Positions 1 to 41,931 of a stretch of DNA of 52,092 bases are shown here, piece after piece. Origin of the DNA: a virus; IMG/VR virus record IMGVR_UViG_3300045993_000887, positions 1-52,092 of that record, one strand, 5' to 3'. The position numbers and the translations under genes are program-made. How positions within the stretch are numbered: position 1 is the first letter of the stretch; the number at the start of each line of letters is the position of its first letter. Below the pieces are notes generated by a model. That model made no database searches. It worked only from the letters and a program-made list of their open reading frames with translations, and was not told where the DNA came from.

Positions 1-127
1 GAGTTCGGCGGCGGTACGATCGACTTAAACTTCAGGGTAACGGGTGAAGTTTATCTCAGATACCCTAATCGCTTGGCAACGTGCTAATTTTGTGTATCTG
101 ACGAGAATAAGCAACACAAAAGCACCC
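1..127. repeat. Terminal overlap: exact copy of 51966..52092 (circular closure of the contig or a short direct terminal repeat)
   Basis: Bases 1-127 read identical to the last 127 bases. The copy carries the 3' end and stop (85-87) of gene 51258..52052 and the left arm of the 104..159 hairpin. Unique length is 51965 bp. Confidence 0.95.
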
Positions 128-159
128 TATCCTATGGGTGCTTTTGTGTTGCTTATTCT
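104..159. terminator. Long hairpin, probable bidirectional terminator between convergent genes
   Basis: Perfect 24-bp inverted arms 104-127 (AGAATAAGCAACACAAAAGCACCC) and 136-159 with an 8-nt loop. It lies between the stop of the wrapped 51258..52052 gene (+) and the stop of 153..617 (-). Confidence 0.6.
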
Positions 160-2205: not shown

Positions 2206-2802
2206 ATGCTGCATATTTACTCGCACGATCGCTACGTTGCCACACTCACACCTGCGCTTTATGCTCAAAGCCTAAAGCTGACAGCCTTATTTATGCACTT
2301 ATTTGAGCGTTTAGAGGCGTTTGATTATGAGATAGGTGAATATATAGCTCACGATGGAGATCGCCTGTTGCGCGACATTTTGGCTATGCATGGCGCGACA
2401 TTTAATCTAGATGTGATTGCCACAGATTATGGATTGATGCAGAAATTATTTACTAAGGATTTGATTGAGCTTAATAAATTTGAGCCATGCATAGAAGCGC
2501 AAAAAGATCGCCCACATTTAGATGCTGATTCGCCATTCAAAAAGCTCAAAATCAAGAAATCAGGTGATCGCTATATGGATGATTTGGCAGATTTAGCCAT
2601 CATGCTTGGCTCGTATGAGTCCGCTATATCGCTTGCTTATCAGCTTACACAGACGGAAGTAGACCATTTCGTATTTCGATACAGTGAACGGAATAAAATG
2701 CCTGAGAGCCTACTTAATGAGCAAAATAAAGAGTACTTTTTTAATGAGTGGCTAAAAGATGACTGGAATAAAGACTATATGAGTAAAGCTTTTAACTCAT
2801 AA
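2206..2802 (+). CDS. Hypothetical protein
   Basis: 198-aa ORF with TAAGG just upstream of the ATG and a perfect TATAAT at 2177-2182 upstream. Confidence 0.6.
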   Translation: MLHIYSHDRYVATLTPALYAQSLKLTALFMHLFERLEAFDYEIGEYIAHDGDRLLRDILAMHGATFNLDVIATDYGLMQKLFTKDLIELNKFEPCIEAQKDRPHLDADSPFKKLKIKKSGDRYMDDLADLAIMLGSYESAISLAYQLTQTEVDHFVFRYSERNKMPESLLNEQNKEYFFNEWLKDDWNKDYMSKAFNS

Positions 2803-2934
2803 AAAAAGCGCTCTCATTTATCACAGAGAAGCGCTTAGAGTATTATTCAAGCGAAAGGAATAAAAGCATGATAGCATTAATATTGTCGCACCTATGCAGA
2901 TAGGTGCTAATCAATTGAGTACGGTACTACCCAA

Positions 2935-3297
2935 ATGACTACAGAAATTATATCTCAAGCATTAGCCGATCCTGACAGTTTTTATACTGAGCGATGGGAA
3001 TGCGGCTATATGGTTTACCACGGGCGGTTTAATTGGTTCGCTACTTCTATCAATAAAGCGAAAGAAAAGCTTGTAGAGATTAGGAAGGAAGTAGCCTCTA
3101 AGCTTTTGATTTCAGAGGCTTATCGTATTGTTTACGGTGATTGCTTGCATGAAAAAAAGGAATATGCAAGGCTAAGAGAATCTGCATTATCAGACGAGCC
3201 TAGAGTCTATTTTGAGCAGATTTACCCAAAAGATCCTAGCGCTTATGAGTACGCAAAGCGCAACGTAAAGCAATCTATGGTAGAGCATCATGAATAA
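2935..3297 (+). CDS. Hypothetical protein
   Basis: 120-aa ORF, same strand as neighbours, overlaps the next gene by 8 nt. Confidence 0.55.
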   Translation: MTTEIISQALADPDSFYTERWECGYMVYHGRFNWFATSINKAKEKLVEIRKEVASKLLISEAYRIVYGDCLHEKKEYARLRESALSDEPRVYFEQIYPKDPSAYEYAKRNVKQSMVEHHE

Positions 3298-3892
3298 TTT
3301 AGTATCTGAACTCATTCCTATCCCATGCACCGATCGCAAAAAGTTGATGCAATTGCGATCACTTCTAATCGAAATTCAAAGCACATGGTTTGACAATCTA
3401 TTTGACAGTGGACTTACATTTGCAGATCCCATTGTGTGGGAAAAGATGCAAGAAGCTATTTGTTTAATGGAACGACGGGACAACCCATCTGCTAAAGGCT
3501 TTGACCTTAAATCTATTGCTAGTGATTATAAGCTTTTAGAGCAGATTTTTATCGCTAAGCATTGGGAGGTCACTAACTATATTCTTGATGATTCTAGTTT
3601 TGTTGGTTGTGATTTAATTCGTATCCATCATTTTTCTGCTATTGGAGTTTTGAAGGAAGTAGTTGCTTTTATTGCTAATCGTCAATCTATAGAAATTGAG
3701 GAAGTGGATAGTGAATGGCAAATAGATTCTACTATTATTGAGATTTTAAACAATGAGACTCTAACTCCATTGGCACAAACCAAACTTATCAGGAAGTACT
3801 ACATGATGGATAATCGCACAATTGAACAAAGAGTAGTTGATAGCTACCCAGATGAAGACACAGCCTATGAAATTATCAGCAAGGGAGTTTAG
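3290..3892 (+). CDS. Hypothetical protein
   Basis: 200-aa ORF translationally coupled to 2935..3297. Confidence 0.6.
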   Translation: MNNLVSELIPIPCTDRKKLMQLRSLLIEIQSTWFDNLFDSGLTFADPIVWEKMQEAICLMERRDNPSAKGFDLKSIASDYKLLEQIFIAKHWEVTNYILDDSSFVGCDLIRIHHFSAIGVLKEVVAFIANRQSIEIEEVDSEWQIDSTIIEILNNETLTPLAQTKLIRKYYMMDNRTIEQRVVDSYPDEDTAYEIISKGV

Positions 3893-3894
3893 CC

Positions 3895-4038
3895 ATGAGC
3901 AAGCCAAAAGATTCGCAACCTGAAGTTATATTTTCTCGAAAGGCTGAAAATAATTACAATCTGGAAGATAAAAAGAAGAAGCTAAAAGCGATGAAAGTGA
4001 GTCCTTTAATTATGAAAATGTATGAGGATCGAGGATGA
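3895..4038 (+). CDS. Small hypothetical Lys-rich protein (47 aa, below the ORF-track cutoff)
   Basis: ATG lies 2 nt after the 3892 stop, followed by 47 sense codons. Its TGA overlaps the thyX ATG (ATGA at 4035-4038). Confidence 0.4.
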   Translation: MSKPKDSQPEVIFSRKAENNYNLEDKKKKLKAMKVSPLIMKMYEDRG

Positions 4039-4868
4039 CTTTTTATCCCACAGCAAATATTATTGCTGACTCAATAAATGAATGTGGAGATCGCTTAACC
4101 ACATTTGTTTTGACCTATCATCGTATGATTCATTCTGAATTTAACACGCATCGAATGTTTTCGCGTAATGCCTCTAGCAGTCGCGCAATTCCTGTTGAGA
4201 GATTAATTGAACTTGTAGAAGAGCAAGAAGTTTACCCTTTATACTGGGGGCGCAATTGCAAAGGTATGAGTGCAAAGGAAGAGTTGCAAGGTGATGCATT
4301 ATTAGAAGCACAAGCATGGTGGAAAGTTGCAAGAGAAGATGCAATCTCATCAGCAAAGATAGGCATGGAGATTGGTGTCCACAAGCAAACTGTTAACCGC
4401 CTATTAGAGCCATTCTCAACTATTACGGTGATTTGTTCTAGTACTGAATATCAAATTTTTTTTGATCAGCGTTGCCATCCTAATGCACAGCCAGAAATAC
4501 AGGCATTAGCTGTGACTATGCGTGAAGCTTATACCGCAAGCGAACCCAGATTGCTAGAAGCTGGGGAATGGCATATCCCTTTTATGAGTGAGAATGAGTG
4601 GCACGATAATTTTATTGGCAGAATAAAAGATGATGACTTTATCAAAATCGCCACAGGCCGTTGTGCTAGGGTTTCTTATCTCAATCATGGCGGTGTCCGC
4701 CATACTCAAGATGACATCAAATTACACGATCGCCTATTGGCGTCAAAACCAGCGCACCTATCGCCATTTGAGCATTGCGCGATCTCGCTTCCTAACTCAG
4801 AAAAAAGAGCTAATTTTAAAGGCTTTGAATCGTATCGTTTTCAATTAGAACATTGCCAAAAAGCCTAG
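4035..4868 (+). CDS. thyX: Flavin-dependent thymidylate synthase ThyX
   Basis: 277 aa. ThyX signature region EFNTHRMFSRNASSSRAIP (RHR-x7-S-x-R type, with T in place of the first R) and C-terminal HLSPFEH. Confidence 0.8.
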   Translation: MTFYPTANIIADSINECGDRLTTFVLTYHRMIHSEFNTHRMFSRNASSSRAIPVERLIELVEEQEVYPLYWGRNCKGMSAKEELQGDALLEAQAWWKVAREDAISSAKIGMEIGVHKQTVNRLLEPFSTITVICSSTEYQIFFDQRCHPNAQPEIQALAVTMREAYTASEPRLLEAGEWHIPFMSENEWHDNFIGRIKDDDFIKIATGRCARVSYLNHGGVRHTQDDIKLHDRLLASKPAHLSPFEHCAISLPNSEKRANFKGFESYRFQLEHCQKA

Positions 4869-4869
4869 C

Positions 4870-4881
4870 TTGCTTTATTTT
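4870..4881 (+). promoter_or_regulatory. Conserved 12-mer TTGCTTTATTTT, copy 1 (candidate late-promoter element)
   Basis: Exact 12-mer followed by 8 nt (AAAGCCCT) and the ATGGCA of the tape measure gene. No Shine-Dalgarno in between. Confidence 0.4.
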
Positions 4882-4889: not shown

Positions 4890-7800
4890 ATGGCAAGCAA
4901 CAGCACTGCAACGATTATTTTTAAGGGCGATGACCAGATATCACCCGCAATTAAAGGCGCTACTGCGAGTGTGGCGGGGCTTAGCCAATCGTTTGAGGGC
5001 GTTGATACAGGGGCTAAGCAAGCATCAGATAGCATTAGAGAGAATCTAGTTAAACAAATTGAGGCGGCGCGTCAAAAAGTTTCTGATTTTGCTAAACAAG
5101 GCTTAAAAGTTGAGCAAGGGCAAGCATTAGGAGAATTAAGAAAATTACAAGGGGAGCTAAAAAAACTTGACGCACCTGTAGGGACTAACACTTTAGATCC
5201 CCTTGCGGCATCTGCCAACAAAACGGCTGTCCAAATTAAAACTGAACTTACCAAGTCAATATTGGCTGTAAATCAAGAATTAGCAAAGCTTTCAACCCAG
5301 AAATTAACGCCTGAAGTTCGCCTAAGACAAGATCAATTATTAGGTCAATTATCAGGATTAAAAACTCAATTAAAGGATATTGACAAACTGGTTGTACAGC
5401 CAAAAGTACAGCTAGACCCGCTACAACTCAATGCCATATCGCAAAGTTTTGGGGCGATCGCGGGTAAGCTAACAGAATTAAAAGGATCGGCTGTTGCGGC
5501 GGCGGGTGCGATTTCCGTAGCTGAGAGAAAGCTGTCCACAGTATCAGATGAGTCTGGGAAATTAATCAAGAATTTTGGCGATTTGGCTGCGGCTAACAAA
5601 TTCCAGACCACAACAGCAGAATTAGCAGGTGCATCCTATGAAGTTTTAAGCGCTGGCTTCACCAAAACTGCTGATGTAACTAAAATCCTAGACGCATCAA
5701 CAAAGGGGGCTGTAGGCGGTTTCTCAGACGTAATCACAGTAAGTAAAGCAACCATTTCAGCGCTTAACGCCTATGGACAAGGTGCAGATCAAGCAGCATC
5801 CTTTGTGGACAAATTCGTGTCTGTGCAGCAAAGCGGCTTAATCACGGTTGATCAATATGCTCAACAAATTGCCAGGATTGCACCAACGGCGGCGGCTGCG
5901 GGTCTAAGCCTAGATGAACTTAACGGCGCAATTGCCACTGCTACTGCATCTGGCGTGCCTGTAGAATCAACATTTAGCGGTTTGCGAACGGCGATCGGCG
6001 CAATCCTAAAGCCAAGTTCTGAAGCTGTCACATTATCGAAAGAATTAGGGATTAGCTTTAATGCTCAAGCCCTAAAGACTAAGGGACTAAGCGGCATTCT
6101 TAAGGAATTAAAAACGACTGGCAATGATAGCGCTGATACGCTCCTTAAATTATTTGGCTCGGCTGAGGCATTGGCAGCGATCGCCCCTTCAATTAATAGC
6201 ATCGAAAAATTAGAGGCAAATATTAAAGCAAGTGCCAATAGCGCGGGGCTTGCAGCCACTAATTTTGATAAAGCCGCCGATCCTATTAAAGCTTTTGCAA
6301 ATCAAACTACCGAGGCTCTAGCCGTATTAGGCAAAGATGTCCTAAAGGTGTTTAACCCAGTAATAGGCACTTCCAAGGCTGTTGTACAAGCCTTTTTAGA
6401 ATTGCCACAGCCAGTGCGAGAAGTAATTGCTTTTCTCGTTGGAGGTGGTGCGGCGATCGCAACTACAGGCGCGGCTATTTCTGGATTTTTGGCAATTCTT
6501 AGCCCAACATTAGCAGGGCTATCTGCACTAGGAACGGGCGTTACGGCTGCGATCGGATTCCTAACGGCTGGGCAAGTGGCGCTCGGCACTGCTACAGCCA
6601 CAACTACTGGATTAACGGCTGCTGAAGCTGCGGCTTTTGGCGGTGTGGCTACTGCATCAGGCAGCGCAACGGCGGGCGTAGGAGGACTGACCACAGCTAC
6701 CGCAGGACTAGGCACGGCGGCGGGTATTACGGCGGGGACATTAGGATTGATCGCATTGGCGGCGGTTCCTTTACTGATCATCGGCAAGCAATTTAATGAT
6801 GCATGGGGAACCGATAAAGTTACGGCTGGCTTAAAAGATATGCGTAGGCAGCTAGACGATATCAAAGCAAAAAGGGGGGAATTAGCTAAACCTCAAAAGG
6901 GACAAGATGATGGATTAGGCGGGACTGGAATTAATGAAGGCAATTTTAACGGATTTATAAACCCATTTAATACCAGACAAGACGAACAAAAAAATGTTAT
7001 TCGCTTTAGCGAAAAACAAAATCAGGATGAGTTAAACAAAGTTTATGAAGATGGCGTCTCCATACTCAAAAAGTATGGAGTGGCTAGCGAAGAAGCTGCT
7101 AAAAAAACAAAATTAAGCAAAGAACAGTTAGAAGCATTTACCAAAGATATTGCAGAGAAAAAAGAAGATTTTGATATTGCAATTAACAATTTGCAAAAAC
7201 AAGGCGAAGAAGCTAAAGGTAATCCTATTTTGCAAGGGCAGATTAGACAAAGGATTATTGAATTTTCTAATGCAAAAAAACTATTAGATGACAAGCTTAA
7301 ATTGCAACTCGAAACTAATAAAAAAGTAGAAGCTGCTGAGAAAAGATCGTCAGAAGCCATTGAAGAGATTGCTAAAAAACGGATTGATAAAGAGAAGCAA
7401 AATAATGAGAACCAAGCTCGGCTGCGTGGACGTGATTTTGAGCAAAAAGCAAAAGCAGAAAGTGGCGCTTTTGAAACAAAGTCGCGTGATGATAAGCGAG
7501 TATTTGAAGCACAATTAAATACTGATAAAAAGGCATTTGAAGAAGGGCAAAAAGCTGACAAAAAAGAATTTGAGAAAGGACTTCAAAGCGAGAATAAGCA
7601 GTTTGCTCGCGATCAAAAAGTTGAGCAACAAGCTTTCAATGCTGAAGAAAAAGCTAGTGACAAAGCCTATGAGAGAGAGAAGCAAGCGGCGCAAAGAGTC
7701 TTTGATAAAGAGCAAGAAAAAGCTAAAGAAGCATTTGATAAAAAGCAACGTGACGCAAGTTTAGCATTTGACAAAAGCCAAGATGCTGCTAAAAAAACGG

Positions 7801-8831
7801 CTGACGATAAATTTGCAATTCGCAAATTAGAGATTGAAAGAAAATTACAACTTGATGCAGCAAAAACACCAGAGGACAAGGCAAAATTAGAAGCAGAATT
7901 TAAGGCGACTGATGAAAAAGCTGCTAAGGAAAAGTTAGCATTTGAACAATTAAAAGCTGATGAGTTAGCGTTTGCAGAAAAGCAAAAAGCTGACAAAATC
8001 GCCTTTGACGAAAGGCAAAAAGTAGATCAAAAAGCTGAGGATGAAAGGCAAAAGGCGGCTAAGCAAGCCTTTGACGACGCTCAAAAACTTGTAGATGAAC
8101 AAAGAGACGCTGATAAGCAACTTAAAAAAGAGGCTTTTGAAGAGCAGTTAAATATTAAGAAAGAAGCTTTTGATGCGGCGCAAAACCTCAAAAAAGAAGC
8201 CTATGAAGCAGGGCAAAATAAATTAAAAGAAGATTTTGATACCACCCAAAATGTCAAAAAGCAAGCCTTTGAGGATGCTGAGCGAGCTAAAAAAGAAGCT
8301 TTTGACCTTGCCCAAAATGACAAAAAAGCTGCTTTTGAGGATGGCGAACGTGCTAAAAAGCAAGCTTTTGAAGACAATTTAAAAGCCCTTGAAGCTCAAT
8401 TTAAGTCTGAGGAGCGGGCTAAAGATATCGCCACAGCACAACAAGTAGCGGCTATTAAAGCGGGTAGTGCGGCGAGTACTGTGGCTGAGTTAGCAAGTTC
8501 AGTCTTAGGGGCTGGTGCTTCACCTAGAGCTAGTGGTGGTAGGTTTGACGCAGGGCAACAGCTTCTAGTAGGCGAGCGTGGTCAAGAATTGGTCACCTTT
8601 GGCAGTGGCGGGTATGTGTCGAATGCCACTGATACTAAGCAAATACTTAGCTCAAATAGCAATGCCCCCAGTAGCGTCTCAACGGCGCGTATGGAGGCAT
8701 TGCTTAGCCAGTTAGTAGGGAAACTAGATCGCCCGAATGTATCGGTACAGACAAGTGAAAACCCTAGCGATGTGCTGATTAAGATTCAGCGTGAGGCGGC
8801 GCGATCGGCGGCTATGCAAAGCGGGATTTAA
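4890..8831 (+). CDS. Tail tape measure protein
   Basis: 1313 aa. TMP-core-like segment (ELAGASYEVLSAGF...ISALNAYGQ). Gly/Ala-rich hydrophobic block. About 300 aa of Lys/Glu coiled coil with an aromatic residue every 11 aa. C-terminal LLVGERGQELV-type motif. Confidence 0.8.
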   Translation: MASNSTATIIFKGDDQISPAIKGATASVAGLSQSFEGVDTGAKQASDSIRENLVKQIEAARQKVSDFAKQGLKVEQGQALGELRKLQGELKKLDAPVGTNTLDPLAASANKTAVQIKTELTKSILAVNQELAKLSTQKLTPEVRLRQDQLLGQLSGLKTQLKDIDKLVVQPKVQLDPLQLNAISQSFGAIAGKLTELKGSAVAAAGAISVAERKLSTVSDESGKLIKNFGDLAAANKFQTTTAELAGASYEVLSAGFTKTADVTKILDASTKGAVGGFSDVITVSKATISALNAYGQGADQAASFVDKFVSVQQSGLITVDQYAQQIARIAPTAAAAGLSLDELNGAIATATASGVPVESTFSGLRTAIGAILKPSSEAVTLSKELGISFNAQALKTKGLSGILKELKTTGNDSADTLLKLFGSAEALAAIAPSINSIEKLEANIKASANSAGLAATNFDKAADPIKAFANQTTEALAVLGKDVLKVFNPVIGTSKAVVQAFLELPQPVREVIAFLVGGGAAIATTGAAISGFLAILSPTLAGLSALGTGVTAAIGFLTAGQVALGTATATTTGLTAAEAAAFGGVATASGSATAGVGGLTTATAGLGTAAGITAGTLGLIALAAVPLLIIGKQFNDAWGTDKVTAGLKDMRRQLDDIKAKRGELAKPQKGQDDGLGGTGINEGNFNGFINPFNTRQDEQKNVIRFSEKQNQDELNKVYEDGVSILKKYGVASEEAAKKTKLSKEQLEAFTKDIAEKKEDFDIAINNLQKQGEEAKGNPILQGQIRQRIIEFSNAKKLLDDKLKLQLETNKKVEAAEKRSSEAIEEIAKKRIDKEKQNNENQARLRGRDFEQKAKAESGAFETKSRDDKRVFEAQLNTDKKAFEEGQKADKKEFEKGLQSENKQFARDQKVEQQAFNAEEKASDKAYEREKQAAQRVFDKEQEKAKEAFDKKQRDASLAFDKSQDAAKKTADDKFAIRKLEIERKLQLDAAKTPEDKAKLEAEFKATDEKAAKEKLAFEQLKADELAFAEKQKADKIAFDERQKVDQKAEDERQKAAKQAFDDAQKLVDEQRDADKQLKKEAFEEQLNIKKEAFDAAQNLKKEAYEAGQNKLKEDFDTTQNVKKQAFEDAERAKKEAFDLAQNDKKAAFEDGERAKKQAFEDNLKALEAQFKSEERAKDIATAQQVAAIKAGSAASTVAELASSVLGAGASPRASGGRFDAGQQLLVGERGQELVTFGSGGYVSNATDTKQILSSNSNAPSSVSTARMEALLSQLVGKLDRPNVSVQTSENPSDVLIKIQREAARSAAMQSGI

Positions 8832-8853
8832 ACTAATTGCCAATAACCCTCTT

Positions 8854-8865
8854 TTGCTTTATTTT
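8854..8865 (+). promoter_or_regulatory. Conserved 12-mer TTGCTTTATTTT, copy 2
   Basis: Exact 12-mer followed by 8 nt (AAGCAGCT) and the ATGGCA of 8874..10154. No SD. Confidence 0.4.
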
Positions 8866-8873
8866 AAGCAGCT

Positions 8874-10154
8874 ATGGCAGATAGATCACCACAGCAAGTA
8901 CAGCCGTTACAAGGGACGCTCTCAAAAGAAGTAGAGCGCCTTACTAATTCGATCATCAATGAACTCTCAAACCTAGATACAGTAGGTATTGATGAATATT
9001 TATTGATGGCAACGACTGACCCAATTTGTGGCGCGGGTATCGAAATCCCGATGCTAATGGGTGCGCTAAAACTTGGCGAATTTTGCCATGAAGATCCTGA
9101 TATAGAAGCATGGACTAGGCGAAACTTTGTAAATATGCGAGGCTCGCTACCGCTAAGCTTTGCTGAAATGTGGCAAGCGAAACCATTTGGGCATAGTTGG
9201 AGTGAGATATCGTGTGAGCCTAAAAATGGCAGTTGGATGCTCCAATCCATCATGGCTGTAGACCCGCGTTATTTCAGGTATGCTGGTTCAATTGGCAAAA
9301 TTGACCAGATTCGATATCGCACCGTACCACAGGGTATGGTAAATATTCCTTACGAGAAAGGAATCCATATAATTAATGGCAGACACCTCAGCATAGGGCG
9401 CGATCCTTATGGCTTTGCAGAATGCAAAAAAGCTTACCCATACTGGAAAGCTAAAAAATTAATACTTGCTGCTATGGTAATCGCAGCGCAAAGGCAAGCC
9501 ACACCTCTACTTGTGGGGAAAACTGACTTAGAAAGTAGTTTTGAATTAGTCGATAGTTTTGGCAATATTTTACTGAATGAAAATGGCTTACCAATCAGGG
9601 GGCGATCGGGCGATCGCATGAAGTCAGCTTTAGAGCAAATTGAGAATCAATCCGTCATCGTAATTGATAAAAATATTGATGAAATCATAGCGATCGCACA
9701 GCAAACCGATGGAGCTTTCTTCCTTAATGTTTTGCGATTCCTGAATAGCCAGATTTTAATGGCTTTCCTAATGCCAGAAACTGTAATTACCACAGGCTCG
9801 CAGGGCGCAAGCGGTGACAGTAATTTGAATGCAGGGCATGGCGCGATCTTAGATTTGGTGGTAAGCAGCTTCACTCAGCAAATTAAGGAGCGATTGATTG
9901 AAGATGTTTGCAGATTTTTAATAACTAATGAATTTGGAGAGCAAGAAAGCTATGGGCATTTTAAAGAGCCTGAGCAAGATAAGACGGATGCTGTGGCATT
10001 ATTGGGAGCGATATCAGGTGCGTCAATGAGTGGTGTTTTGGGCGGTAATGATATCGAGGTAATTAATCGATCGCGCGATCTTGCTGGTATCCCAGCCATT
10101 GATCAAATTCTGATACAGCAAGCAAGCAGATATAAATATATGGAGGATTCGTAA
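8874..10154 (+). CDS. Probable portal protein (Mu gp29/DUF935-like)
   Basis: 426 aa. AYPYWKAKKLILAAMVIAAQRQATPLLVGK and ILMAFLMPETVITTG...GASGDSN...AGHG resemble the conserved DUF935 portal core as I remember it. Other Mu-like head genes are present, and there is no portal-sized ORF next to terL. Confidence 0.5.
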   Translation: MADRSPQQVQPLQGTLSKEVERLTNSIINELSNLDTVGIDEYLLMATTDPICGAGIEIPMLMGALKLGEFCHEDPDIEAWTRRNFVNMRGSLPLSFAEMWQAKPFGHSWSEISCEPKNGSWMLQSIMAVDPRYFRYAGSIGKIDQIRYRTVPQGMVNIPYEKGIHIINGRHLSIGRDPYGFAECKKAYPYWKAKKLILAAMVIAAQRQATPLLVGKTDLESSFELVDSFGNILLNENGLPIRGRSGDRMKSALEQIENQSVIVIDKNIDEIIAIAQQTDGAFFLNVLRFLNSQILMAFLMPETVITTGSQGASGDSNLNAGHGAILDLVVSSFTQQIKERLIEDVCRFLITNEFGEQESYGHFKEPEQDKTDAVALLGAISGASMSGVLGGNDIEVINRSRDLAGIPAIDQILIQQASRYKYMEDS

Positions 10155-13917: not shown

Positions 13918-15481
13918 TAACTTTCACCTCTAAATTATTTGCTATATTTCCAAATTCGCCATCAATTTGAGACTTAATCCACCATGACGGCGTGCCATTC
14001 CTAAATCGCATAGTACCAGCACGTTGGACATTGCGATAGAACTGATTAAACTTGTTCACATCACCCTCAAATATTGCGCCTAAAGCCCAATATTTGAGGG
14101 GTTTAGGGAATGCCTCAAACCTTTTATTAACATAATCCACATAAGCGCCGCTAGTGCATCCTGAGCGCTTATACTCTTTCCTTAGTAATTGCCTGTAAAA
14201 CTCACGATGCGCTTGCTCAGAGCCGTCATTCATGACCATAGTGGGTGTAATTAGCTGTGAGAAAGAGCCATTTAATTCTATTCGCTCTTTCTCTTTAATT
14301 GGGAATAGATAAGCACAGTATGGACAATTACGCTCTTGTGCGCGAATGATTCTAGAACACTCAGGACAAGTCTTAACAGGCGCTTCACCAGCTTGTCTTA
14401 GTGGCTTGCGACTAAGTATTGATGCTTTGGTGTGGACACGTTCGCAAGGATAGCCAGATGCTTCTAGATTGCCAACACAGTCGATGATGATACCGCGCTC
14501 TTTGCCTTCTGCAATCCTAGCCACACGCCCGATTTGCTGCTCTATGATGGCTAGGGATTTAGAGGGACGCATAAGCAAGCCTATTTCTATTTCTGGCAAG
14601 TCAAAGCCCTTGGTGAGTGCCATGCAGCTTACTAGCAGCTTAATTTCGCCACGTTTACAAAGCCCAAAAACTTCTAATCGATATTCTTTTTTATCAGTAC
14701 CAGTGATTGATGCGGCGCTAATTCCTAATCGATTCGCAACTTCAGTTATGGCGATCGCGTGTTCCACGTTTACGGCAAAAGCGATCGCTCTTTTACCCGC
14801 TCCTAATCCTTGATACTTATTCAGTGCCGCCATAATTGCCTTTTCATTATTGACAATTTTGGCAGTTTCTTTTACTTGGTAATCACCTTGAGCGATTTTT
14901 ATTTTGCTAAAATCAGCATGGTCAATCCCGTAATAATCCAAAGGTGCTAAATACCCTAATTTTTGCAATTCTGCAAATGATGGACTGATGACAGCATCTT
15001 GGAATATATCAGCAAAACATTGTTTATTGGATAGGCGGTATGGTGTGGCTGTCAAGCCTATTACCCATTTACTAGACTTCTCAATTAGCTTTAAAGATAA
15101 TGCATACCAGCCAGTAGTATGTACTTCATCTAATAGAATTAAATCCCAGTGGCAATCATGCCAAGCGACTCGATTAGATAAAGATTGGATAGAAGCAATA
15201 AACACACTAAAGTCATTATAATCAGGCTCTTGATATCCATCTGCAATCACTCCATAGGGTACTGTTAGCTTGCTAGCGGTCTGGTCAATCAAAGTAATGT
15301 TATCCACCAGAAAGAGAACTTTGCGCCCCTTGGCAGCGAATCTAGCCATAAGTGCAGAGGCGATTACTGTTTTGCCACTTCCTGTGCTGGCAACTAGTAC
15401 GATATTTTGATTTTTAAGTGTGTTGGCAGAATGAATTACTTGGTTGATTATGTCCTCTTGAAATGGTCTAAGAGTTAGCAT
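13904..15481 (-). CDS. Superfamily 2 DEAH-box DNA helicase with C-terminal zinc ribbon
   Basis: 525 aa. Motif I ASTGSGKT, II LLDEVH, III TATP, VI QQIGRVAR. CPECS...CPYC. Confidence 0.85.
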   Translation of the reverse strand: MLTLRPFQEDIINQVIHSANTLKNQNIVLVASTGSGKTVIASALMARFAAKGRKVLFLVDNITLIDQTASKLTVPYGVIADGYQEPDYNDFSVFIASIQSLSNRVAWHDCHWDLILLDEVHTTGWYALSLKLIEKSSKWVIGLTATPYRLSNKQCFADIFQDAVISPSFAELQKLGYLAPLDYYGIDHADFSKIKIAQGDYQVKETAKIVNNEKAIMAALNKYQGLGAGKRAIAFAVNVEHAIAITEVANRLGISAASITGTDKKEYRLEVFGLCKRGEIKLLVSCMALTKGFDLPEIEIGLLMRPSKSLAIIEQQIGRVARIAEGKERGIIIDCVGNLEASGYPCERVHTKASILSRKPLRQAGEAPVKTCPECSRIIRAQERNCPYCAYLFPIKEKERIELNGSFSQLITPTMVMNDGSEQAHREFYRQLLRKEYKRSGCTSGAYVDYVNKRFEAFPKPLKYWALGAIFEGDVNKFNQFYRNVQRAGTMRFRNGTPSWWIKSQIDGEFGNIANNLEVKVNAPH

Positions 15482-16379
15482 TTACTACACTCCCAATAAC
15501 TTTCTCATAGAGTAAAGGAGGGACAGCATTCCCAATTCCTTTACGAATTGGCTCAATTTTATCGCCCCAAATATAATCTTTTGGGAATGATTGGAGCCGT
15601 GCCAAGCAATCCAAATTTAATTGGATTGTCTCACCTGATTCTATTAAAGCTCTAGGGTCACGATCGCTTGCTTTGATAGTAAATATCGGTTGATTGGCAT
15701 AACGAACCGTATTAGCTCGTTGCTCGGTAGAGGACATAACAAATGGCTTTATTATTCCCTTTGTCATGTTTTTTTGCCAATCAGCAAAATCACTTTGCTT
15801 GCAATTTGGGATTAAATCAGAGATCGCCTGATACCAACCGATATGCTTTTCTTTAGGTGGGAGCGATGGAATAAAGCCAGATTTTATAGCAATGAGAATT
15901 AATCGGCGGCGCGATTGTGGAGCTCCAAAATCAGCAGCATTTAGTACCTGGCAATTCAGCCAATAGCCTTGAGAATAAAGTGTTTCAATAATATTATTAA
16001 AGGCTTCATGATTGCCATACTCAGCCACATTCTCAAGGGTAAAATATTGTGGCTGTAAAGTACGAATAAATTCGCAAACTTTAGCGGCGCAATCAAGATC
16101 TAATTGAGTCTCTTTTGCGTCAGTCTTGGCGCTTGAGTATGATTTACAAACAGGTGAAGCGTGAAGTAAATCAACTTTCTCAAACTTCATGGGGTCAGCG
16201 TCAAGAATATTTTGCACATAAACTTGACCATGATTTGCCCTATAAATTTCAGCAATCGCGGGGTCAAATTCTAATCCCCATGCATGGGTGAACCCTGCTT
16301 GTTTCATGCCCTGTGCAACGCCGCCACAGCCACTAAATAGATCGGCTGATGTTAGGCTAGAATGGGAAGTCATCATCAT
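15468..16379 (-). CDS. DNA cytosine-5 methyltransferase (1 of 2)
   Basis: Motifs DLFSGCGG (I), SPVCKSYS (IV-like), LENV (VI), QSRRRL (VIII), GNAVPP (X). The ORF track extends to 16415, but the Met triplet at 16379-16371 is the more likely start. Confidence 0.85.
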   Translation of the reverse strand: MMMTSHSSLTSADLFSGCGGVAQGMKQAGFTHAWGLEFDPAIAEIYRANHGQVYVQNILDADPMKFEKVDLLHASPVCKSYSSAKTDAKETQLDLDCAAKVCEFIRTLQPQYFTLENVAEYGNHEAFNNIIETLYSQGYWLNCQVLNAADFGAPQSRRRLILIAIKSGFIPSLPPKEKHIGWYQAISDLIPNCKQSDFADWQKNMTKGIIKPFVMSSTEQRANTVRYANQPIFTIKASDRDPRALIESGETIQLNLDCLARLQSFPKDYIWGDKIEPIRKGIGNAVPPLLYEKVIGSVVNANS

Positions 16380-16653
16380 CCTCCCAATCACGAAGCACTT
16401 CAACCCTAAAATCATGCAATTGAGTATTAAATTGCCCTTTCCTAAATGAAGAAATTTTAGAAATATCTAAATCTTCTTTTGCAAATTCTGGAAAGTTTTC
16501 AGCGCACCAATCGCAAATCTTCATTGCATCAGCAAAAATTTCTGTGTCCGTCTTTGGCAATCGAAATCCGTTGTCATGAACAACGTTGTAAAAAAATATA
16601 AGCTCAGGCAGAAGAATAGTGCCTTGTGTTGTCTGCACTTGGATTGTAATCAT
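16357..16653 (-). CDS. Hypothetical protein
   Basis: 98-aa ORF in the leftward replication operon with an acidic C-terminus (WEDDDDFPF). Confidence 0.55.
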   Translation of the reverse strand: MITIQVQTTQGTILLPELIFFYNVVHDNGFRLPKTDTEIFADAMKICDWCAENFPEFAKEDLDISKISSFRKGQFNTQLHDFRVEVLRDWEDDDDFPF

Positions 16654-32666: not shown

Positions 32667-32692
32667 GCCTGTAACTTTGCGGAGTTACAGGC
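32667..32692. terminator. Hairpin after the module (10-bp stem)
   Basis: GCCTGTAACT-TTGCGG-AGTTACAGGC. The A-run lies on the 5' side only. Confidence 0.4.
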
Positions 32693-32753
32693 GGGAATGT
32701 TTAGGGATATCTAGCATTTACAAAGTAAAGTCTAAATAAAGTATACCAATAAA

Positions 32754-32792
32754 AAAGCACATAATCTCTACTCGCTAAAGATTATGTGCTTT
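32754..32792. terminator. Bidirectional terminator between convergent operons
   Basis: AAAGCACATAATCT, 11-nt loop, AGATTATGTGCTTT, with A and T runs flanking. Confidence 0.65.
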
Positions 32793-32864
32793 TAGACATT
32801 CGCCTTGGATTGCTTGCTGCTATTATATTACCATCTCAACCCCCCATGCATAGTGATCACTTTT

Positions 32865-34330: not shown

Positions 34331-36367
34331 TTAATGATTCAATATTCCAAAAATAACAGCATCGATAGTAACCGCGCCTGTGATTTGACCTTGCTCTGCT
34401 AGCACTCCAGTGACCACAGCATCAATAATTATTGAGCCAATATCAAAGGTTTGCGTGATAGTTCCTGCGGCGATTGCATCAATCACAATAGAGCCGCGCA
34501 ACGAGAGGATCGGTGTAGCAGGACGGTACACAGTAGACGGTGTGGCAGCAGGGCTAGTACTAATCACATCGCACATAAAGCCAATCGTGCGACTGGTCAA
34601 ATCTTGGCTAAATGCGATCGCATCTACCAGGCATCGGTATAAAATCCCATTAAAAATAATGTCGATTCTGCACCGGGGGCGCAAAGCCAAAAGTTGATCA
34701 GTGAGAGCCGTAATCATAAATCTACATTGCTTTCTCCCATTCATTAGTACTACTTCCAGATTGCCATATTCCAAGGCTTGTGCATCGCTTACGAGCCAAT
34801 CTACAATGATGGGTGCTAATTTCTCTTTTGATGGCACTCCTGCTAATGGGATCGCGGTAATCGTTGCTGATAATTCTTGATTCTTAGTTTTTGATTTTTC
34901 ACTGTAAGTGATTGAGGGTGGTCTAGTAGAGCCATCATTAGATATTTTTGGTGTGCGAGTTGCACCTACAAAATTGCTAGGCAAGCGACTATCACCTGTA
35001 GTAAATGCCTGATAAGTTACCCCATTGCAAGCTATTGATCGTGTGATCGCGCCTGTCACACCATCATAATTTGTGCCGAAAGTTTCTATGGCTGTGATTT
35101 GGCTCCAAAATGGCAATGAAGGAGCATAAAAGATTGTTTGCCGAGAAGTGCTGTAGAGCGTGGCAATATTGCCAGATGTCGGATTTATGCCTGTATATAC
35201 GGCTGTGCGAATACTTGAGGGATAGCCATCGGTGTACGTGCAATCAACTATGGTGCGCTCAATCTCAAAAAATGGAGTCGTTGGCGTTCCTATGGGAGGC
35301 GTACCGCCAACAGTATTAGCGATAAATCTTGAGTATTTTCTGGTAGTAATTTGGCTTAGTCGGTTTTGACTATCAAAAGTTGTTATTTGCTCTTTGATTT
35401 TATTCGCAACCAAAGGACTAGCAACCATTACAGCTTCTAATCCAATCACAATAGGGGAGACATATGCGACTTCCTCAACCTCTACTGAGTAATTTTCGCT
35501 TGTAATTTGGACGGTATTTCTGCCTACGGTAAGCACAGTACGAGCAGATGAATTTGTTACCCCATACTCTTGCTCTTGAGTCGTGACATTCAGGATTGGG
35601 TAATCACCAGTGTCTGGGGCTTGTGCCACACCAGAGATAGTGAGTTCTGTAACTGTGGGAATAGCAGAACCATCAATAGGCTCGAAGCTCGACTCATCAG
35701 AGCCAATAGTGAGTGTAGTGATCGCACTAGCAGCTAAATCAATGGGTGATGCAACGACTACGCCTGACGCATTGCAGTACAAAACATGGTTAATAGCCCC
35801 TACTAAGTCCCCTGCAAACTTGATAGGTGATCCGCCTGATTTCTGGACTGGTGTGTTAAATGGGTAGCCTAGCGCGGGGATAGAATGCGAGGTTATGCTT
35901 GCATCCTCAAGTACTCGCACAACAATGTCATCGCGATCGGTATAAGTGCCAATGGTCACGCCGCTAACATCACGGTCTGCCGTGCGCTGTGATTGGTACG
36001 CAAGAATATCGCCTACATCTATCTGTAATGTACCTTCGTCGAAACTGATGGTAGGAGGTGACGGCTCTTTAAGGATATATAGCTGCACACCGCTTAGCAG
36101 TGCATTTACAAGCACGCCTGAATCGTTAGCGGTTTGGAATACTACAAGCGCCCCTACTGCCCAATTTGCTGCAATTGTAGGATTGCCAATAGTTATATAT
36201 TCGTTATATTTGAGCGCGCCAAAAGCTAAAGTTATCGCGCCTGTTACAGGCGCATCACGCCGCTCTAATGTTGATGGCTGCGAGAGCGTAATCGATTTTA
36301 ATTCGGCTGTCCTATCCACACCAGCAATAGTTAGGGCAAAGGAGCGAGATGAAATATTAATTGTCAT
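34331..36367 (-). CDS. Large tail-tip/baseplate protein
   Basis: 678 aa with Thr/Ser/Gly/Ile/Val-rich, beta-type composition. Coupled (ATGA) to 36364..36903. Confidence 0.55.
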   Translation of the reverse strand: MTINISSRSFALTIAGVDRTAELKSITLSQPSTLERRDAPVTGAITLAFGALKYNEYITIGNPTIAANWAVGALVVFQTANDSGVLVNALLSGVQLYILKEPSPPTISFDEGTLQIDVGDILAYQSQRTADRDVSGVTIGTYTDRDDIVVRVLEDASITSHSIPALGYPFNTPVQKSGGSPIKFAGDLVGAINHVLYCNASGVVVASPIDLAASAITTLTIGSDESSFEPIDGSAIPTVTELTISGVAQAPDTGDYPILNVTTQEQEYGVTNSSARTVLTVGRNTVQITSENYSVEVEEVAYVSPIVIGLEAVMVASPLVANKIKEQITTFDSQNRLSQITTRKYSRFIANTVGGTPPIGTPTTPFFEIERTIVDCTYTDGYPSSIRTAVYTGINPTSGNIATLYSTSRQTIFYAPSLPFWSQITAIETFGTNYDGVTGAITRSIACNGVTYQAFTTGDSRLPSNFVGATRTPKISNDGSTRPPSITYSEKSKTKNQELSATITAIPLAGVPSKEKLAPIIVDWLVSDAQALEYGNLEVVLMNGRKQCRFMITALTDQLLALRPRCRIDIIFNGILYRCLVDAIAFSQDLTSRTIGFMCDVISTSPAATPSTVYRPATPILSLRGSIVIDAIAAGTITQTFDIGSIIIDAVVTGVLAEQGQITGAVTIDAVIFGILNH

Positions 36368-36903
36368 ATTTTCACCCCAGTATCTTGCAGCACCATCGCG
36401 ACACTACGAATCAATACCTGATCGGCTCTTACAGAATTATTCGGGCTAAGGCGAACTGAACTACGGGCTTGTCCAAATTCGGGCGGCGCTACCCAGTCTG
36501 CTTGGAATTTAGGATAGTAATAAACGCCGCCGTTAAGTTCTCGTGGTGTGGTTCCTGTTACAGATGTACGGGTTTTAGTTGATGTTGTTTTGCCATACTC
36601 ATAAATTTCTTCAGTCTCATCATCAATCGTGACAAAAAGAGAGCCTGTTCCTGTCCGTCTAGCGATGTCTAATTGTTCCCAGATCGCCTTAATCTTGTCA
36701 TAATCGGTCTGGTACAGGTCACAGGCTATTGTCCACAGATAAGGCAACTCAAAACTTGTGCCTGACTTGATTAAATTGCCAGACTGGGCATAACTGCTCT
36801 CGTTTACAAATACTTTGCGGCTGCGTGGCAAATCAGCACCTTTCCAATTACGAAAAGTGATAGATAGATCGGCGTATGATAGTGTGAGATCTTGCAGAGC
36901 CAT
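36364..36903 (-). CDS. Putative distal-tail/baseplate protein, first gene of the leftward tail block
   Basis: 179 aa. Preceded on its own strand by TTGCTTTATTTT, then 8 nt, then ATGGCT. Confidence 0.55.
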   Translation of the reverse strand: MALQDLTLSYADLSITFRNWKGADLPRSRKVFVNESSYAQSGNLIKSGTSFELPYLWTIACDLYQTDYDKIKAIWEQLDIARRTGTGSLFVTIDDETEEIYEYGKTTSTKTRTSVTGTTPRELNGGVYYYPKFQADWVAPPEFGQARSSVRLSPNNSVRADQVLIRSVAMVLQDTGVKI

Positions 36904-36911
36904 AGGGCTAT

Positions 36912-36923
36912 AAAATAAAGCAA
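36912..36923 (-). promoter_or_regulatory. Conserved 12-mer TTGCTTTATTTT, copy 3 (minus strand)
   Basis: The plus strand reads AAAATAAAGCAA. On the minus strand it is followed by ATAGCCCT and the ATGGCT of 36364..36903. Confidence 0.4.
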
Positions 36924-36924
36924 A

Positions 36925-37476
36925 ATGGGCTATATGGCAAAGGGTAAAGCTAAATTATCAGATTTTAAATGTCAAGCAAAAAACACTAATAAGCACAAGC
37001 CGCGTGGTATGGCAATGCTTGACAGTGTTATTGAAACTGACGGATGGCAAGGTGGGATAACTGTTGCTGCCAATGGTGAGACGTTCGCAGGTTCGGCACG
37101 CTTAGAGGTTGCAACTAATCGATTTGGTGAAGATGCTGAGCCGATCATGGTGCATACTACAGGTGATCGTCCTGTGATTATTGTGCGTGATGATATCCCA
37201 GATGCTAATCACCCAAAAGCAGTTAGGCTAGGCATTGCAGATAATCGGATAAGCGAAATTAACTATGATGCTGATTATGAGTTATTGACTGAGATATCGG
37301 ATGAAATTGATATTTCAGATATGTATGATGACGATGAGTTGATTGTGGATACAGATGAGAGCGAAACAGAAAACGTTCCATATAATCCTGAATCATCAGC
37401 TAAAGAAGTCAATGTAGATAATTTTGAGTTTGAATGCGAATGCCCCAAATGTGGGTTTCAATTTAATGGTAAATAG
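36925..37476 (+). CDS. ParB-like nuclease-domain protein with C-terminal zinc ribbon
   Basis: 183 aa. NTNKHKPRGMAMLDSVIETDGWQGGITV...GSARLEVA...RLGIADNR fits the ParB N-terminal domain pattern. ECECPKCG. ATG 36934 is an alternative start. Confidence 0.55.
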   Translation: MGYMAKGKAKLSDFKCQAKNTNKHKPRGMAMLDSVIETDGWQGGITVAANGETFAGSARLEVATNRFGEDAEPIMVHTTGDRPVIIVRDDIPDANHPKAVRLGIADNRISEINYDADYELLTEISDEIDISDMYDDDELIVDTDESETENVPYNPESSAKEVNVDNFEFECECPKCGFQFNGK

Positions 37477-38458
37477 CATCGCTTGGTATCTGAAAGATTT
37501 AAAATCCGTTACTCAAAACGGACTAAAAGTTATGACTACTTTTAGTTGCGGCGGCGGTAGTTCTATGGGGTATAAGTTAGCAGGGTGCGAGGTGATTGCA
37601 GCTAATGATATTGATCCTAAAATGGCATATCACTATAAATTAAATCTCAATTCTAAACATTATTTTCTATGTCCTATCAAAGATTTAATTGGCAAAAAAT
37701 TACCAGATGAACTTTACCAATTAGATATCCTAGACGGATCGCCGCCATGTTCAACTTTTTCTATGGCTGGCAGCCGCGAAAAAGCATGGGGCAAAAAGAA
37801 GCATTTTAGAGAAGGTCAAGCCGAACAAATTTTAGATGATTTATTTTTTGATTACCTTGATTTAGTTGAACATTTGCGCCCAAAAGTAGCGATCGCTGAA
37901 AATGTCAAAGGTTTGTTACAAGGCAATGCGAAAGGCTATTGCAAGTTGATTATTGAGAGGTTTAAGGCGATCGGCTATAAGCCTCAATTATTTCTGGTTA
38001 ACGCTGCTGATTGTGGCGTTCCACAAAAGCGAGAACGTGTATTTTTTGTGGCTTTGCGCGATGATATTGATAAGCCTAAATTGCTATTAGCTCCTAAGCA
38101 CAGATGGATTAGCGCGGGTGAGGCGATAGAAGATTTAGGGCATAAAGTTAAAGGATTATTTCTTGTTACGGCTGGCAATGAAAGGCATGTCAAAGCTTTT
38201 AGACTTCCTATACATGATCCTTATTCTCAACCCGCCCCAACATTGACAGCTACAGGTAATTCTTTTGATTTAATTTCTAAAGATCGCGAAACTGAAGAGA
38301 GGGCTTATACTTTTGCCGAATATAAACGCCTTGGTTCATTCCCTGATGACTACCAAGCGAAAACGGGTAAGATAGGCAAATATATGATAGGAATGAGCGT
38401 ACCGCCACGCATGACAGAACAGGTGGCTAAAGCTGTGATAGAGCAGTGGTTAAGTTAA
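37466..38458 (+). CDS. DNA cytosine-5 methyltransferase (2 of 2)
   Basis: Motifs TFSCGGGS (I), GSPPCSTFS (IV), ENVKGL (VI), QKRERVF (VIII), GMSVPP (X). The ORF track starts at 37424; ATG 37466 is more likely. Confidence 0.85.
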   Translation: MVNSIAWYLKDLKSVTQNGLKVMTTFSCGGGSSMGYKLAGCEVIAANDIDPKMAYHYKLNLNSKHYFLCPIKDLIGKKLPDELYQLDILDGSPPCSTFSMAGSREKAWGKKKHFREGQAEQILDDLFFDYLDLVEHLRPKVAIAENVKGLLQGNAKGYCKLIIERFKAIGYKPQLFLVNAADCGVPQKRERVFFVALRDDIDKPKLLLAPKHRWISAGEAIEDLGHKVKGLFLVTAGNERHVKAFRLPIHDPYSQPAPTLTATGNSFDLISKDRETEERAYTFAEYKRLGSFPDDYQAKTGKIGKYMIGMSVPPRMTEQVAKAVIEQWLS

Positions 38459-40660: not shown

Positions 40661-40669
40661 TTTTTTCTT

Positions 40670-41018: not shown

Positions 41019-41024
41019 TATATA

Positions 41025-41053
41025 AATATAGCACTCTATATGGCGTGTGTCAA
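41025..41053 (-). promoter_or_regulatory. Consensus sigma70-type promoter pointing into the ORF-free region
   Basis: The minus strand reads TTGACA (41053-41048), 17 nt, TATATT (41030-41025). Confidence 0.55.
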
Positions 41054-41077
41054 CCCCCCTAGCAAAATCGCTCAAAT

Positions 41078-41548: not shown

Positions 41549-41593
41549 AGTTTAAAAATTATACCATACTTTGCATAGGTGCTACAGAATAGT

Positions 41594-41926: not shown

Positions 41927-41931
41927 AACCA

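Follow-up and report, generated by a model that had tools for sequence, protein, structure and literature searches.

What function could one exact 12-mer, TTGCTTTATTTT, serve at the heads of virion gene blocks scattered round a viral genome? The question is raised by a 52,092-nt viral sequence, the whole of which is called the window below, for which a preliminary description made by reading the letters had proposed that the 12-mer marks the heads of late operons. Almost nothing is known about the timing of gene expression in siphoviruses of filamentous cyanobacteria, and we found no paper on this phage or on the motif. We suggest, with a probability of roughly 60%, that the copies are late promoters used by the host RNA polymerase and that at four of the six sites they would direct leaderless or near-leaderless mRNAs.

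A six-copy bipartite element in a cyanobacterial siphophage

The first and last 127 nt of the window are identical, which indicates a circular assembly of 51,965 bp, and the cyanobacterial palindrome GCGATCGC occurs in it 37 times against 0.34 expected. Virion and packaging genes include those for the tape measure (4890-8831), a Mu-type portal (8874-10154), the large terminase (38811-40502), the major capsid protein (45248-46363) and a Mu F-like head protein (47211-48122), and replication and DNA modification are represented by a VapE-type primase, two helicases and three DNA methyltransferases; no tRNA or tmRNA was found in the window. Family searches bore out the names first given to the tape measure gene (PHROG tape-measure families, PF10145) and the portal gene (PF06074 Portal_Mu, 1.3e-23) and supported that of the capsid gene, 45248-46363 matching phrog_29 at 4.5e-9, while the genes called 'tail tube' and 'leftward tail block' gave no match in these searches. 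The virion genes are scattered over both strands, with methylase, ThyX-like and small reverse-oriented genes between the blocks.

Neither an 8-kb megablast query nor a tblastn search with the capsid protein found a relative among GenBank phages (50,697 records). A 150-kb contig of Phormidium tenue FACHB-1050 encodes a protein that shares 87% identity with the capsid protein, and this relative is also present as a 51.5-kb provirus in the viral collection. Given this match and the provirus, the window belongs to an uncharacterised group of siphophages of filamentous cyanobacteria, at least one member of which is integrated.

The six exact copies of TTGCTTTATTTT that had been claimed were all reproduced, with their coordinates and strands (Table 1). 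Dinucleotide-preserving shuffles give an expectation of 0.07 copies, in line with the earlier statement that the 12-mer should be rarer than once per window, and none of 100 shuffles reached six. The 12-mer is the 3' half of a longer, 29-nt bipartite element, TTGCCA-N11-TTGCTTTATTTT, whose 18 specified bases are exact in all six copies. Each box contains TTGC once, as a direct repeat separated by 13 nt. When the window was searched with the 29-nt pattern, a single further site appeared, with 3 mismatches, and a search for weaker copies (up to 4 mismatches, gap of 10-12 nt) returned noise-like sites only. The 29-nt element is a sharply defined class of six.

Table 1. Copies of the 29-nt element, the start codons that follow them and associated features, in window coordinates
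Feature	Coordinates	Strand	12-mer	Start codon	Between 12-mer and start	Remarks
Copy 1	4853-4881	+	4870-4881	4890-4892 (predicted leaderless or near-leaderless)	8 nt, AAAGCCCT	Box 1 TTGCCA at 4853-4858, box 2 TTGCTTTATTTT; tape measure gene
Copy 2	8837-8865	+	8854	8874-8876 (predicted leaderless or near-leaderless)	8 nt, AAGCAGCT	Begins 5 nt past tape measure stop; Mu-type portal gene
Copy 3	36912-36940	-	36912-36923	36901-36903 (predicted leaderless or near-leaderless)	8 nt, ATAGCCCT	179-aa first gene of leftward block, 36903 to 32865
Copy 4	41976-42004	+	41993	42032	27 nt	Heads capsid block; 22-bp hairpin abuts upstream
Copy 5	43102-43130	+	43119	43140-43142 (predicted leaderless or near-leaderless)	9 nt	Within 491-aa ORF 42849-44324; in-frame ATG of 394-aa gene
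Copy 6	50804-50832	+	50821	50861	28 nt	125-aa gene, then 264-aa gene
Terminator-like hairpin	41933-41978	+				22-bp perfect stem, -37 kcal/mol, then T-run; overlaps first box 1 bases of copy 4; kept in relatives L009 and L012
Terminator-like hairpin	108-155	+				20-bp stem; closes unit begun at 50804
Unit-end hairpin after capsid gene	46381-46410	+				13-bp stem
Two unit-end hairpins after leftward block (copy 3)	32753-32793 and 32667-32692	-
Inserted module	42005-43101	+				In window and Phormidium prophage; missing from relatives L012, L009 and L002; copies 4 and 5 of the putative promoter, in direct orientation, either side

Placement and conservation of the putative promoter

Every copy, in the window and in its relatives, is co-oriented with the next gene, and all copies in the window head virion genes, the blocks being those of the tape measure, the Mu-type portal and the capsid and two that are unassigned; no copies were found in the replication/early region and none between 13.4 and 32.7 kb. 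The sites are packed closely against their neighbours. At copy 1 the spacer contains the stop codon of the upstream ThyX-like gene, at copy 2 the intergenic gap measures 42 nt in all (5 nt, the 29-nt element and 8 nt), at copy 3 box 1 overlaps the start of a divergent ParB-like gene (36925, +), and copy 6 stands back-to-back with a canonical promoter cassette on the minus strand (50740-50793). Among relatives, a second repeated cassette with a promoter shifts between sites.

Hairpin terminators are found upstream of copy 4 and downstream of the units begun by copies 3, 5 and 6, and none separates the tape measure gene from the portal gene. The 264-aa gene of the copy 6 unit ends at 52052, which is position 87 of the circular genome. 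Three blocks are without any copy, namely the terminase operon (36925-40502), 2206-4868 and 47211-49908, and given these copy-less blocks the element would not be the sole route to late expression.

With respect to promoter geometry, TTGCCA matches five of the six bases of the -35 consensus and TATTTT four of the six of the -10, with A2 and T6 present, in all six copies. A consensus scan accordingly rates all copies as sigma-70-type sites, with 9/12 matching bases and a spacer of 17 nt. However, the window contains 44 such 9/12 matches versus 40 in shuffled sequence, i.e. no enrichment, and the promoter call rests on repetition and conservation because a 9/12 hexamer match is no rarer than chance. 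The -35-like box at a constant 17 nt, the placement before virion genes and the hairpin-bounded units all agree with the late promoters that the preliminary description had put forward, and we retain that reading as a putative one. From its sequence, the 29-nt element is very probably a core promoter; that it forms a late class is also probable, with slightly less assurance, the late timing being judged from the content of the downstream genes.

Conservation was assessed in relatives retrieved in two ways. An exact-pattern scan of viral contigs, a search biased towards the motif, gave 11 loci, of which 7 are relatives with 68-85% DNA identity; the remaining four (L003, L005, L006 and L010) have no protein in common with the window and were treated as chance matches. 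Retrieval by protein only yielded 4 loci by the portal protein and 6 by the 179-aa protein from viral contigs, and two further loci came from the portal alignment in metagenomes. Inspection of the equivalent positions in relatives had been set beforehand as the refuting test, and the element is present at 12 of 12 orthologous gene starts: these protein-retrieved starts lie on 11 contigs, with protein identity down to 48%, and the element is directly upstream in each. In the Phormidium prophage (L001), retrieved by the capsid protein, it precedes the tape measure, portal, 179-aa, capsid-block and 50861-type genes. Logan contigs contributed one 4.8-kb contig for an early gene and none for the 179-aa gene.

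The window and its relatives together supply 26 distinct instances. In every one of them 11 nt separate the two boxes, corresponding to a hexamer spacing of 17 nt, and the sequence of this gap holds only 0.06-0.55 bits per position. The invariance of the boxes in this set is partly due to the construction of the pattern, and the 12 protein-retrieved sites show it without that bias. Upstream of box 1 the sequences are unalignable between relatives and essentially unconserved. None of the 26 instances reads TTGACA or TATAAT, and the same genome carries four TTGACA-17-TATATT sites on its minus strand. In the lineage of the Phormidium prophage, the first base of box 2 is C instead of T (CTGC) at 7 of 8 sites, a change seen at 0 sites elsewhere. 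Since paralogous copies agree where orthologous copies differ, the copies evolve in concert, a pattern to be expected from a co-evolving reader or from gene conversion; the latter, rather than selection exerted by a reader, could account for part of the identity among the copies. The lack of drift towards the consensus, together with the lineage-wide T/C variant, suggests that recognition is more specific than that of housekeeping promoters.

The same observations can be set against a simpler explanation, that these are strong promoters of the ordinary housekeeping type which were duplicated recently and made alike by recombination, without a special class, timing or factor. The -35 box with five of six consensus bases, the 17-nt spacing and the A/T-rich upstream flanks would all be expected of such promoters; at non-essential positions, such as the spacer and the 8 nt before the ATG, copies of one genome resemble each other more than copies of different genomes do (for example in L004, in L011 and in window copies 1 and 3), one insertion is flanked by two copies, and our search for a phage regulator, described below, was negative. 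Recent copying, though, does not account for the same 18 bases at orthologous sites whose proteins are 48-70% identical and whose flanks are unalignable, which indicates purifying selection. Nor has any of the 26 instances drifted to TTGACA or TATAAT although canonical sites share the genome, and the copies are confined to virion genes. We consider housekeeping duplicates quite improbable.

We propose instead that the bacterial RNA polymerase holoenzyme would read the six elements as a virion-gene promoter class, with TTGCCA as the -35 element and TATTTT, 17 nt downstream, as the -10. Additional specificity may come from the invariant TTGC upstream of the -10, the fixed C of the -35 and the A-tract after the -35, and these bases are most likely contacts for a putative phage-encoded or specialised factor. 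The virion genes would thereby be expressed from at least five blocks round the circular genome, each with its own copy.

A protein that binds these bases might also act differently. The element could be an operator, bound by a prophage repressor in the manner of mycobacteriophage stoperators or by an activator on TTGC repeats 17 bp apart, with polymerase starting elsewhere. Eighteen invariant bases at six sites amount to information far above that of ordinary promoters, the TTGC direct repeat is found in both boxes, the concerted variants within genomes are as expected for co-evolution with a phage binder, and a chromosomally integrated relative implies that some repression of late genes is needed. 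Against this, the two boxes are placed precisely as a -35 and a -10 would be, at an invariant 17 nt, and the four sites tight against their start codons leave no room for a promoter before the ATG, copy 2 having none upstream either. The early/replication region, the expected place of the main repressor operators, has no copy, and the second TTGC tolerates C at its first T. An operator function in place of a promoter is thus unlikely, although the two are not exclusive, as a factor may bind the same bases during promoter recognition.

Which protein might provide such specificity was addressed by family searches, which covered nearly all ORFs with Pfam, 20 with PHROGs and 10 with NCBIfam. Among the ~65 ORFs they returned neither a sigma factor nor an RNA polymerase, and no member of Ogr/Mor/Q/RinA-type or AsiA/MotA-type families, which is weak negative evidence because most ORFs match nothing. 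When the early region was compared across relatives to look for a conserved regulator, 1 close and 2 distant loci came up, too few to use. The conserved 106-aa zinc-ribbon protein encoded at 41228-41548 has seven homologues, all unnamed, and no sequence relative in the PDB. What the analysis does provide is a 29-bp sequence with predicted start sites, and a culture-collection strain, Phormidium tenue FACHB-1050, carries an integrated relative. Should the promoters prove silent in cells that lack the phage, they would, together with their reader, make a compact orthogonal expression switch for cyanobacteria.

Among known systems, the element is closest to the class-specific promoters of phages that rely on host polymerase, in that a near-identical bipartite repeat heads each unit of one gene class, is conserved among related phages and differs from the host-type promoters that the genome also carries. 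Such late or middle promoter classes, with a -35/-10 consensus of their own, occur for instance in Bacillus phage SPO1. The present case differs in that no phage sigma or activator is detectable, the boxes are 1-2 bases off the housekeeping consensus and the host is cyanobacterial. The start-associated sequences and stoperators of mycobacteriophages are single 13-nt boxes in tens of copies on both genome arms, bound by repressor or thought to be translational. They share with our element an asymmetric, transcription-oriented sequence in short intergenic gaps before start codons, whereas the element here is bipartite with promoter spacing and has six copies before virion genes only.

Several other element types were considered and rejected. 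A sigma-54 promoter (TGGCAC-N5-TTGCW, with GG at -24 and GC at -12) does not fit a box 1 of TTGCCA, which lacks GG, or box starts 17 nt apart, and cyanobacteria are not known to possess sigma-54. A lambda CII-type site (TTGC-N6-TTGC straddling the -35) does not fit repeats 13 nt apart, the second of them beside the -10 and read as CTGC in one lineage. The MotA box of T4, (a/t)(a/t)(a/t)TGCTTtA, lies at about -30, ~12 bp upstream of the -10. The string TGCTTTA also occurs in box 2, a resemblance of letters only, with no TAnnnT at the right distance; it overlaps the -10-like hexamer, there is no hexamer 12 bp downstream, and the window gave no MotA/AsiA match.

Start codons and predicted leaders

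The layout first described for three sites, the 12-mer followed by 8 nt and ATGGC, is exact at all three (Table 1), and an ATG also adjoins the putative promoter at copy 5, making four of the six. The distance from TATTTT to the ATG is 8, 8, 8 and 9 nt at these four window copies, and copies 4 and 6 would have leaders of 27-28 nt. Relatives show the same two arrangements, with the ATG 6-10 nt (mode 8) after TATTTT in the leaderless class and 25-36 nt from the box in the capsid and 50861-type units. The bases in between differ among sites (AAGCAGCT, GCAAAGCT, AAGCACCT, ACAAAT and others). All downstream starts are ATG, and the N-terminal residues from this ATG are conserved in relatives (MA..TATIIFKG, MAD(R/K) and MAL.DLTL.Y), so that the assignment of the start codon is not in doubt. 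In annotating phages of this group, the motif offers a practical marker both of where operons begin and of which start codons are the true ones.

The starts had also been described as lacking a Shine-Dalgarno sequence (SD), and all 6 downstream starts indeed pair with the anti-SD at -2.4 kcal/mol or weaker. Internal genes of the blocks headed by a copy do have SDs (-4.5 or stronger), as had been stated, and an SD-like match of that strength is present at ~45% of the other 60 ORF starts.

The expectation of leaderless late mRNAs accordingly held for part of the sites: the constrained ATG distance and the conserved N-termini speak for it at four of six, as a prediction, and the 27-28 nt leaders speak against it at the other two. 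For the four, we favour a leaderless message or a leader of at most 3 nt as somewhat the likelier outcome. Transcription would begin on the A of the ATG or 1-3 nt earlier, the ATG being 8-9 nt past the -10, and the messages concerned would be those for the tape measure, the portal, the 179-aa protein and the 394-aa capsid-block protein. A gap of 8 nt puts the A at the 9th base past the hexamer, and the E. coli optimum is 1-2 nt shorter. Given this distance beyond the E. coli optimum, a leader of 1-2 nt is as likely as none. By the rules of start-site selection, a start on the A (a purine after T) or 1-2 nt before it is plausible.

Leaderless transcription has precedents in phages and bacteria. 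The middle and late transcripts of Thermus phage phiYS40 are reportedly leaderless, according to the 2007 work of Sevostyanova et al. Other examples are lambda cI transcribed from PRM and Anabaena cvkR/cas12k (PMC9938897). The -10 of leaderless genes lies 6-8 nt from the ATG in Mycobacterium tuberculosis (PMC6028130) and at 6-7 bp in Deinococcus (PMC12340547). Promoters of this kind resemble the present sites in having a -10-like hexamer 6-10 nt before the start codon, an ATG in every case, no SD and a conserved distance. They differ in that the leaderless promoters of Deinococcus/Thermus are mostly without a -35 and the element here has an invariant one; the modal 8 nt here is at the long end of the reported range. 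Leaderless translation has been demonstrated in a filamentous cyanobacterium, and leaderless mRNAs are reported to be rare in cyanobacteria, with 51 in Synechocystis (PMC9938897). If the messages are leaderless, abundant structural proteins would be made in this way in a phylum where leaderless messages are deemed rare. Both the class-specific promoter and the leaderless -10/ATG layout are known signals, and what we describe is a clean new example of them, not a new mechanism.

The absence of SDs can also be explained at the level of RNA. The U-rich box might act in the transcript as an SD-independent translation enhancer for internal genes, for example as a site for ribosomal protein S1. The six downstream starts without an SD are compatible with this, as are the position of the U-rich box 8-9 nt before four ATGs and the lack of a terminator between the tape measure and portal genes, whereby the portal ATG would also be read on read-through RNA. 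There is precedent, too: cyanobacteria are known to initiate translation in an S1-dependent, SD-independent way (Mutsuda and Sugiura 2006, as cited in PMC6028130). An enhancer of this kind leaves box 1 at its fixed 11-nt gap unexplained, however, and 25-36 nt lie between the box and the ATG in units of the capsid and 50861 types. The transcribed strand has no consistent fold (shuffle z-scores of -0.9 to -2.5), and the terminator hairpin before copy 4 means that little read-through RNA would contain that copy. We regard such an enhancer as very unlikely to be the main function, although it could remain a secondary role of the same bases.

A structured RNA was rejected: the six sites have no common fold, and the window gave no Rfam match at gathering score. 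Separately, TTGCCA(T) is the reverse complement of the (A)TGGCAA found at start codons, with full pairing only in tape measure genes; we considered this pairing of box 1 with the start as a start-codon-sequestering hairpin in read-through RNA.

Copy 5 and the inserted module

The preliminary description had listed copy 5 as intragenic. It does lie within a 491-aa ORF, and comparison with relatives shows that it is the ancestral putative promoter of the gene starting at 43140. In three relatives (L012, L009 and L002), the orthologue of copy 4 directly precedes a gene that starts with MAT..HRYYRE, and the window's homology to this gene begins at the ATG at 43140 (MKKQAHRYYRD). The sequence between copies 4 and 5 is a module that contains a 223-aa gene and a 97-aa ORF, the latter in frame through copy 5 into the old gene, and the fused ORF has 491 aa in the window and 493 aa in the prophage. 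This corrects the gene model: the 491-aa ORF is the 394-aa gene to which an N-terminal extension has been added. A PDB search gave no sequence relative for the 394-aa protein. From these alignments, the putative promoter is duplicated around an inserted module, and the copies may double as short homologies between which one module was inserted.

Composite repeats of a terminator and an early promoter, the PeSL of T4-type phages, mediate modular shuffling (PMC2839356, PMC4122927). The arrangement around copies 4 and 5 recalls them in having a promoter repeat, a stem-loop at one site and, between the repeats, a module that is present or absent among relatives; the second promoter cassette, which changes places among relatives, is a further likeness. 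It differs in that PeSL are early promoters in hyperplastic regions of large myoviruses and our element precedes core virion genes in a 52-kb siphophage, where a stem-loop accompanies one of the six copies and the four that do not flank the module precede conserved core genes and have no hairpin. Recombination of the PeSL type is suggested here by one indel.

A more far-reaching reading would join these observations into a dedicated late programme, in which a phage specificity factor steers the host polymerase to the 29-bp promoter, structural mRNAs are leaderless, the copies act as recombination joints and the internal copy gives rise to a shorter capsid-assembly isoform. We hold this to be possible but doubtful. 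The factor in such a programme would be a sigma that has diverged strongly, a protein that appropriates the host sigma or a small activator with a zinc ribbon, for which the 106-aa protein is a candidate.

Within the fused reading frame, the boxes of copy 5 are kept though the residues they encode differ (AALLYFAED in the window and SSLHYFPEN in L001), which indicates that the DNA motif is under selection inside the frame. Two products are therefore predicted from this locus, a long form from transcripts that begin upstream and the 394-aa form from the putative leaderless transcript.

Genome ends, host and gene order

Since an exact direct repeat of 127 nt lies at its two termini (see table), the window represents an assembly that is circular and 51,965 bp long. 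The 264-aa gene, second in the unit headed by copy 6 of the putative late promoter (a 29-nt bipartite element of box 1, TTGCCA, and a 12-mer box 2), ends at 52052 and is followed across the circle junction by a strong hairpin at 108-155.

The cyanobacterial HIP1 palindrome GCGATCGC was found 37 times in the whole window against an expectation of 0.34. A relative with an 87% identical capsid protein sits within a 150-kb contig of Phormidium tenue FACHB-1050. Its location there is a sign of a filamentous cyanobacterial host and, for at least one member of the phage group, of a temperate lifestyle. No integrase family was found in the window.

Gene order in the window is unusual, including the region 4890-10154, where a Mu-type portal gene lies immediately 3' of the tape measure gene and distant from those for terminase and capsid. 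Interspersed among the virion genes are a ThyX-like gene and three genes for DNA methyltransferases. Runs of 33-nt (11-codon) tandem repeats (repeat families D1, D6 and D7) were also observed within the tape measure gene.

Positions in the window of the features discussed in the text
Feature	Position	Strand
Direct terminal repeat	1-127; 51966-52092	
ThyX-like gene	4035-4868	
DNA methyltransferase genes	614-1438; 15468-16415; 37424-38458	
33-nt tandem repeat runs	7478-8213	
179-aa gene	36364-36903	-
Fused 491-aa ORF	42849-44324	
106-aa protein gene	41228-41548	-
First non-coding stretch	40503-41227	
Second non-coding stretch	41549-41975	
TTGACA-17-TATATT site	41053-41025	-
53-aa ORF	40499-40660	-
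54-nt repeat copies	2111-2164; 47100-47153; 50740-50793	-
Reverse ORF, ~112 aa	from 2078	-
Reverse ORF, 65 aa	from 47081	-
Reverse ORF, 128 aa	from 50723	-

Genes at the putative late promoters

Among the late-promoter copies of the window and its relatives, the (A)TGGCAA found at start codons is the reverse complement of box 1, TTGCCA(T), a complementarity that is complete only in the tape measure genes. An ATGGC start is carried by 4 of the 6 promoter-proximal genes, compared with 4 of about 60 other genes.

Copy 3, which precedes the 179-aa gene at the head of the leftward block, overlaps the start of a divergent ParB-like gene (ATG 36925, or ATGGCA at 36934) in the region 36904-36940. On the plus strand, the reverse complement of its -10 region with the neighbouring bases reads TATAAAAT. 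A single stretch of 40 bp may therefore serve both divergent units, or be the object of competition between them. The 179-aa gene itself is matched in two pieces in most relatives (loci L012 at 7669-8442, L019, L020, L022 and L023). The stretch between these pieces, which is absent from the window, measures about 215-250 nt, or about 125 nt in L023 and the Phormidium prophage locus L001, and could represent either an additional domain or an intervening sequence.

Copy 5 lies within a fused ORF of 491 aa, in which a 97-aa N-terminal extension continues in frame across the promoter into the ancestral 394-aa gene. The Phormidium prophage shares this fusion at a length of 493 aa, and two isoforms are predicted from the fused ORF.

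A 106-aa protein and two non-coding stretches

Divergent from the late promoter of the capsid block is the gene for a conserved basic protein of 106 aa. The protein shows the pattern of a zinc ribbon (CPxC ... YRCRRH ... C) and has a Lys/Arg tail. An extended -10, TGGTATAAT, lies upstream of this gene, just 9 nt from its ATG. Our searches returned seven homologues, all unnamed, and neither a Pfam match nor a PDB sequence match. The protein is a candidate DNA-binding regulator.

Two long non-coding stretches separate the terminase from the capsid block; neither had an Rfam match, and they may serve as an origin or a packaging site or encode an untranslated RNA. In the second stretch, CTAACCAAGTGCTAACCA is repeated directly at 41594-41612 and 41663-41690 and in inverted orientation at 41885-41915. 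The first stretch, if transcribed at all, would be read from the canonical TTGACA-17-TATATT site within it, which lies about 360 nt from a 53-aa ORF.

A second repeat family

The window also carries a second repeat family of three 54-nt copies with 81-83% identity. Read on the minus strand, each presents TTGACA, 17 nt and TATATT, then a conserved leader with a Shine-Dalgarno sequence, and these cassettes drive the small reverse-oriented ORFs behind them. One copy stands back-to-back with late promoter copy 6, and in relatives the cassette precedes other late promoters (for instance, at loci L011, L008, L028, L002 and L001), so that it appears to move between sites.
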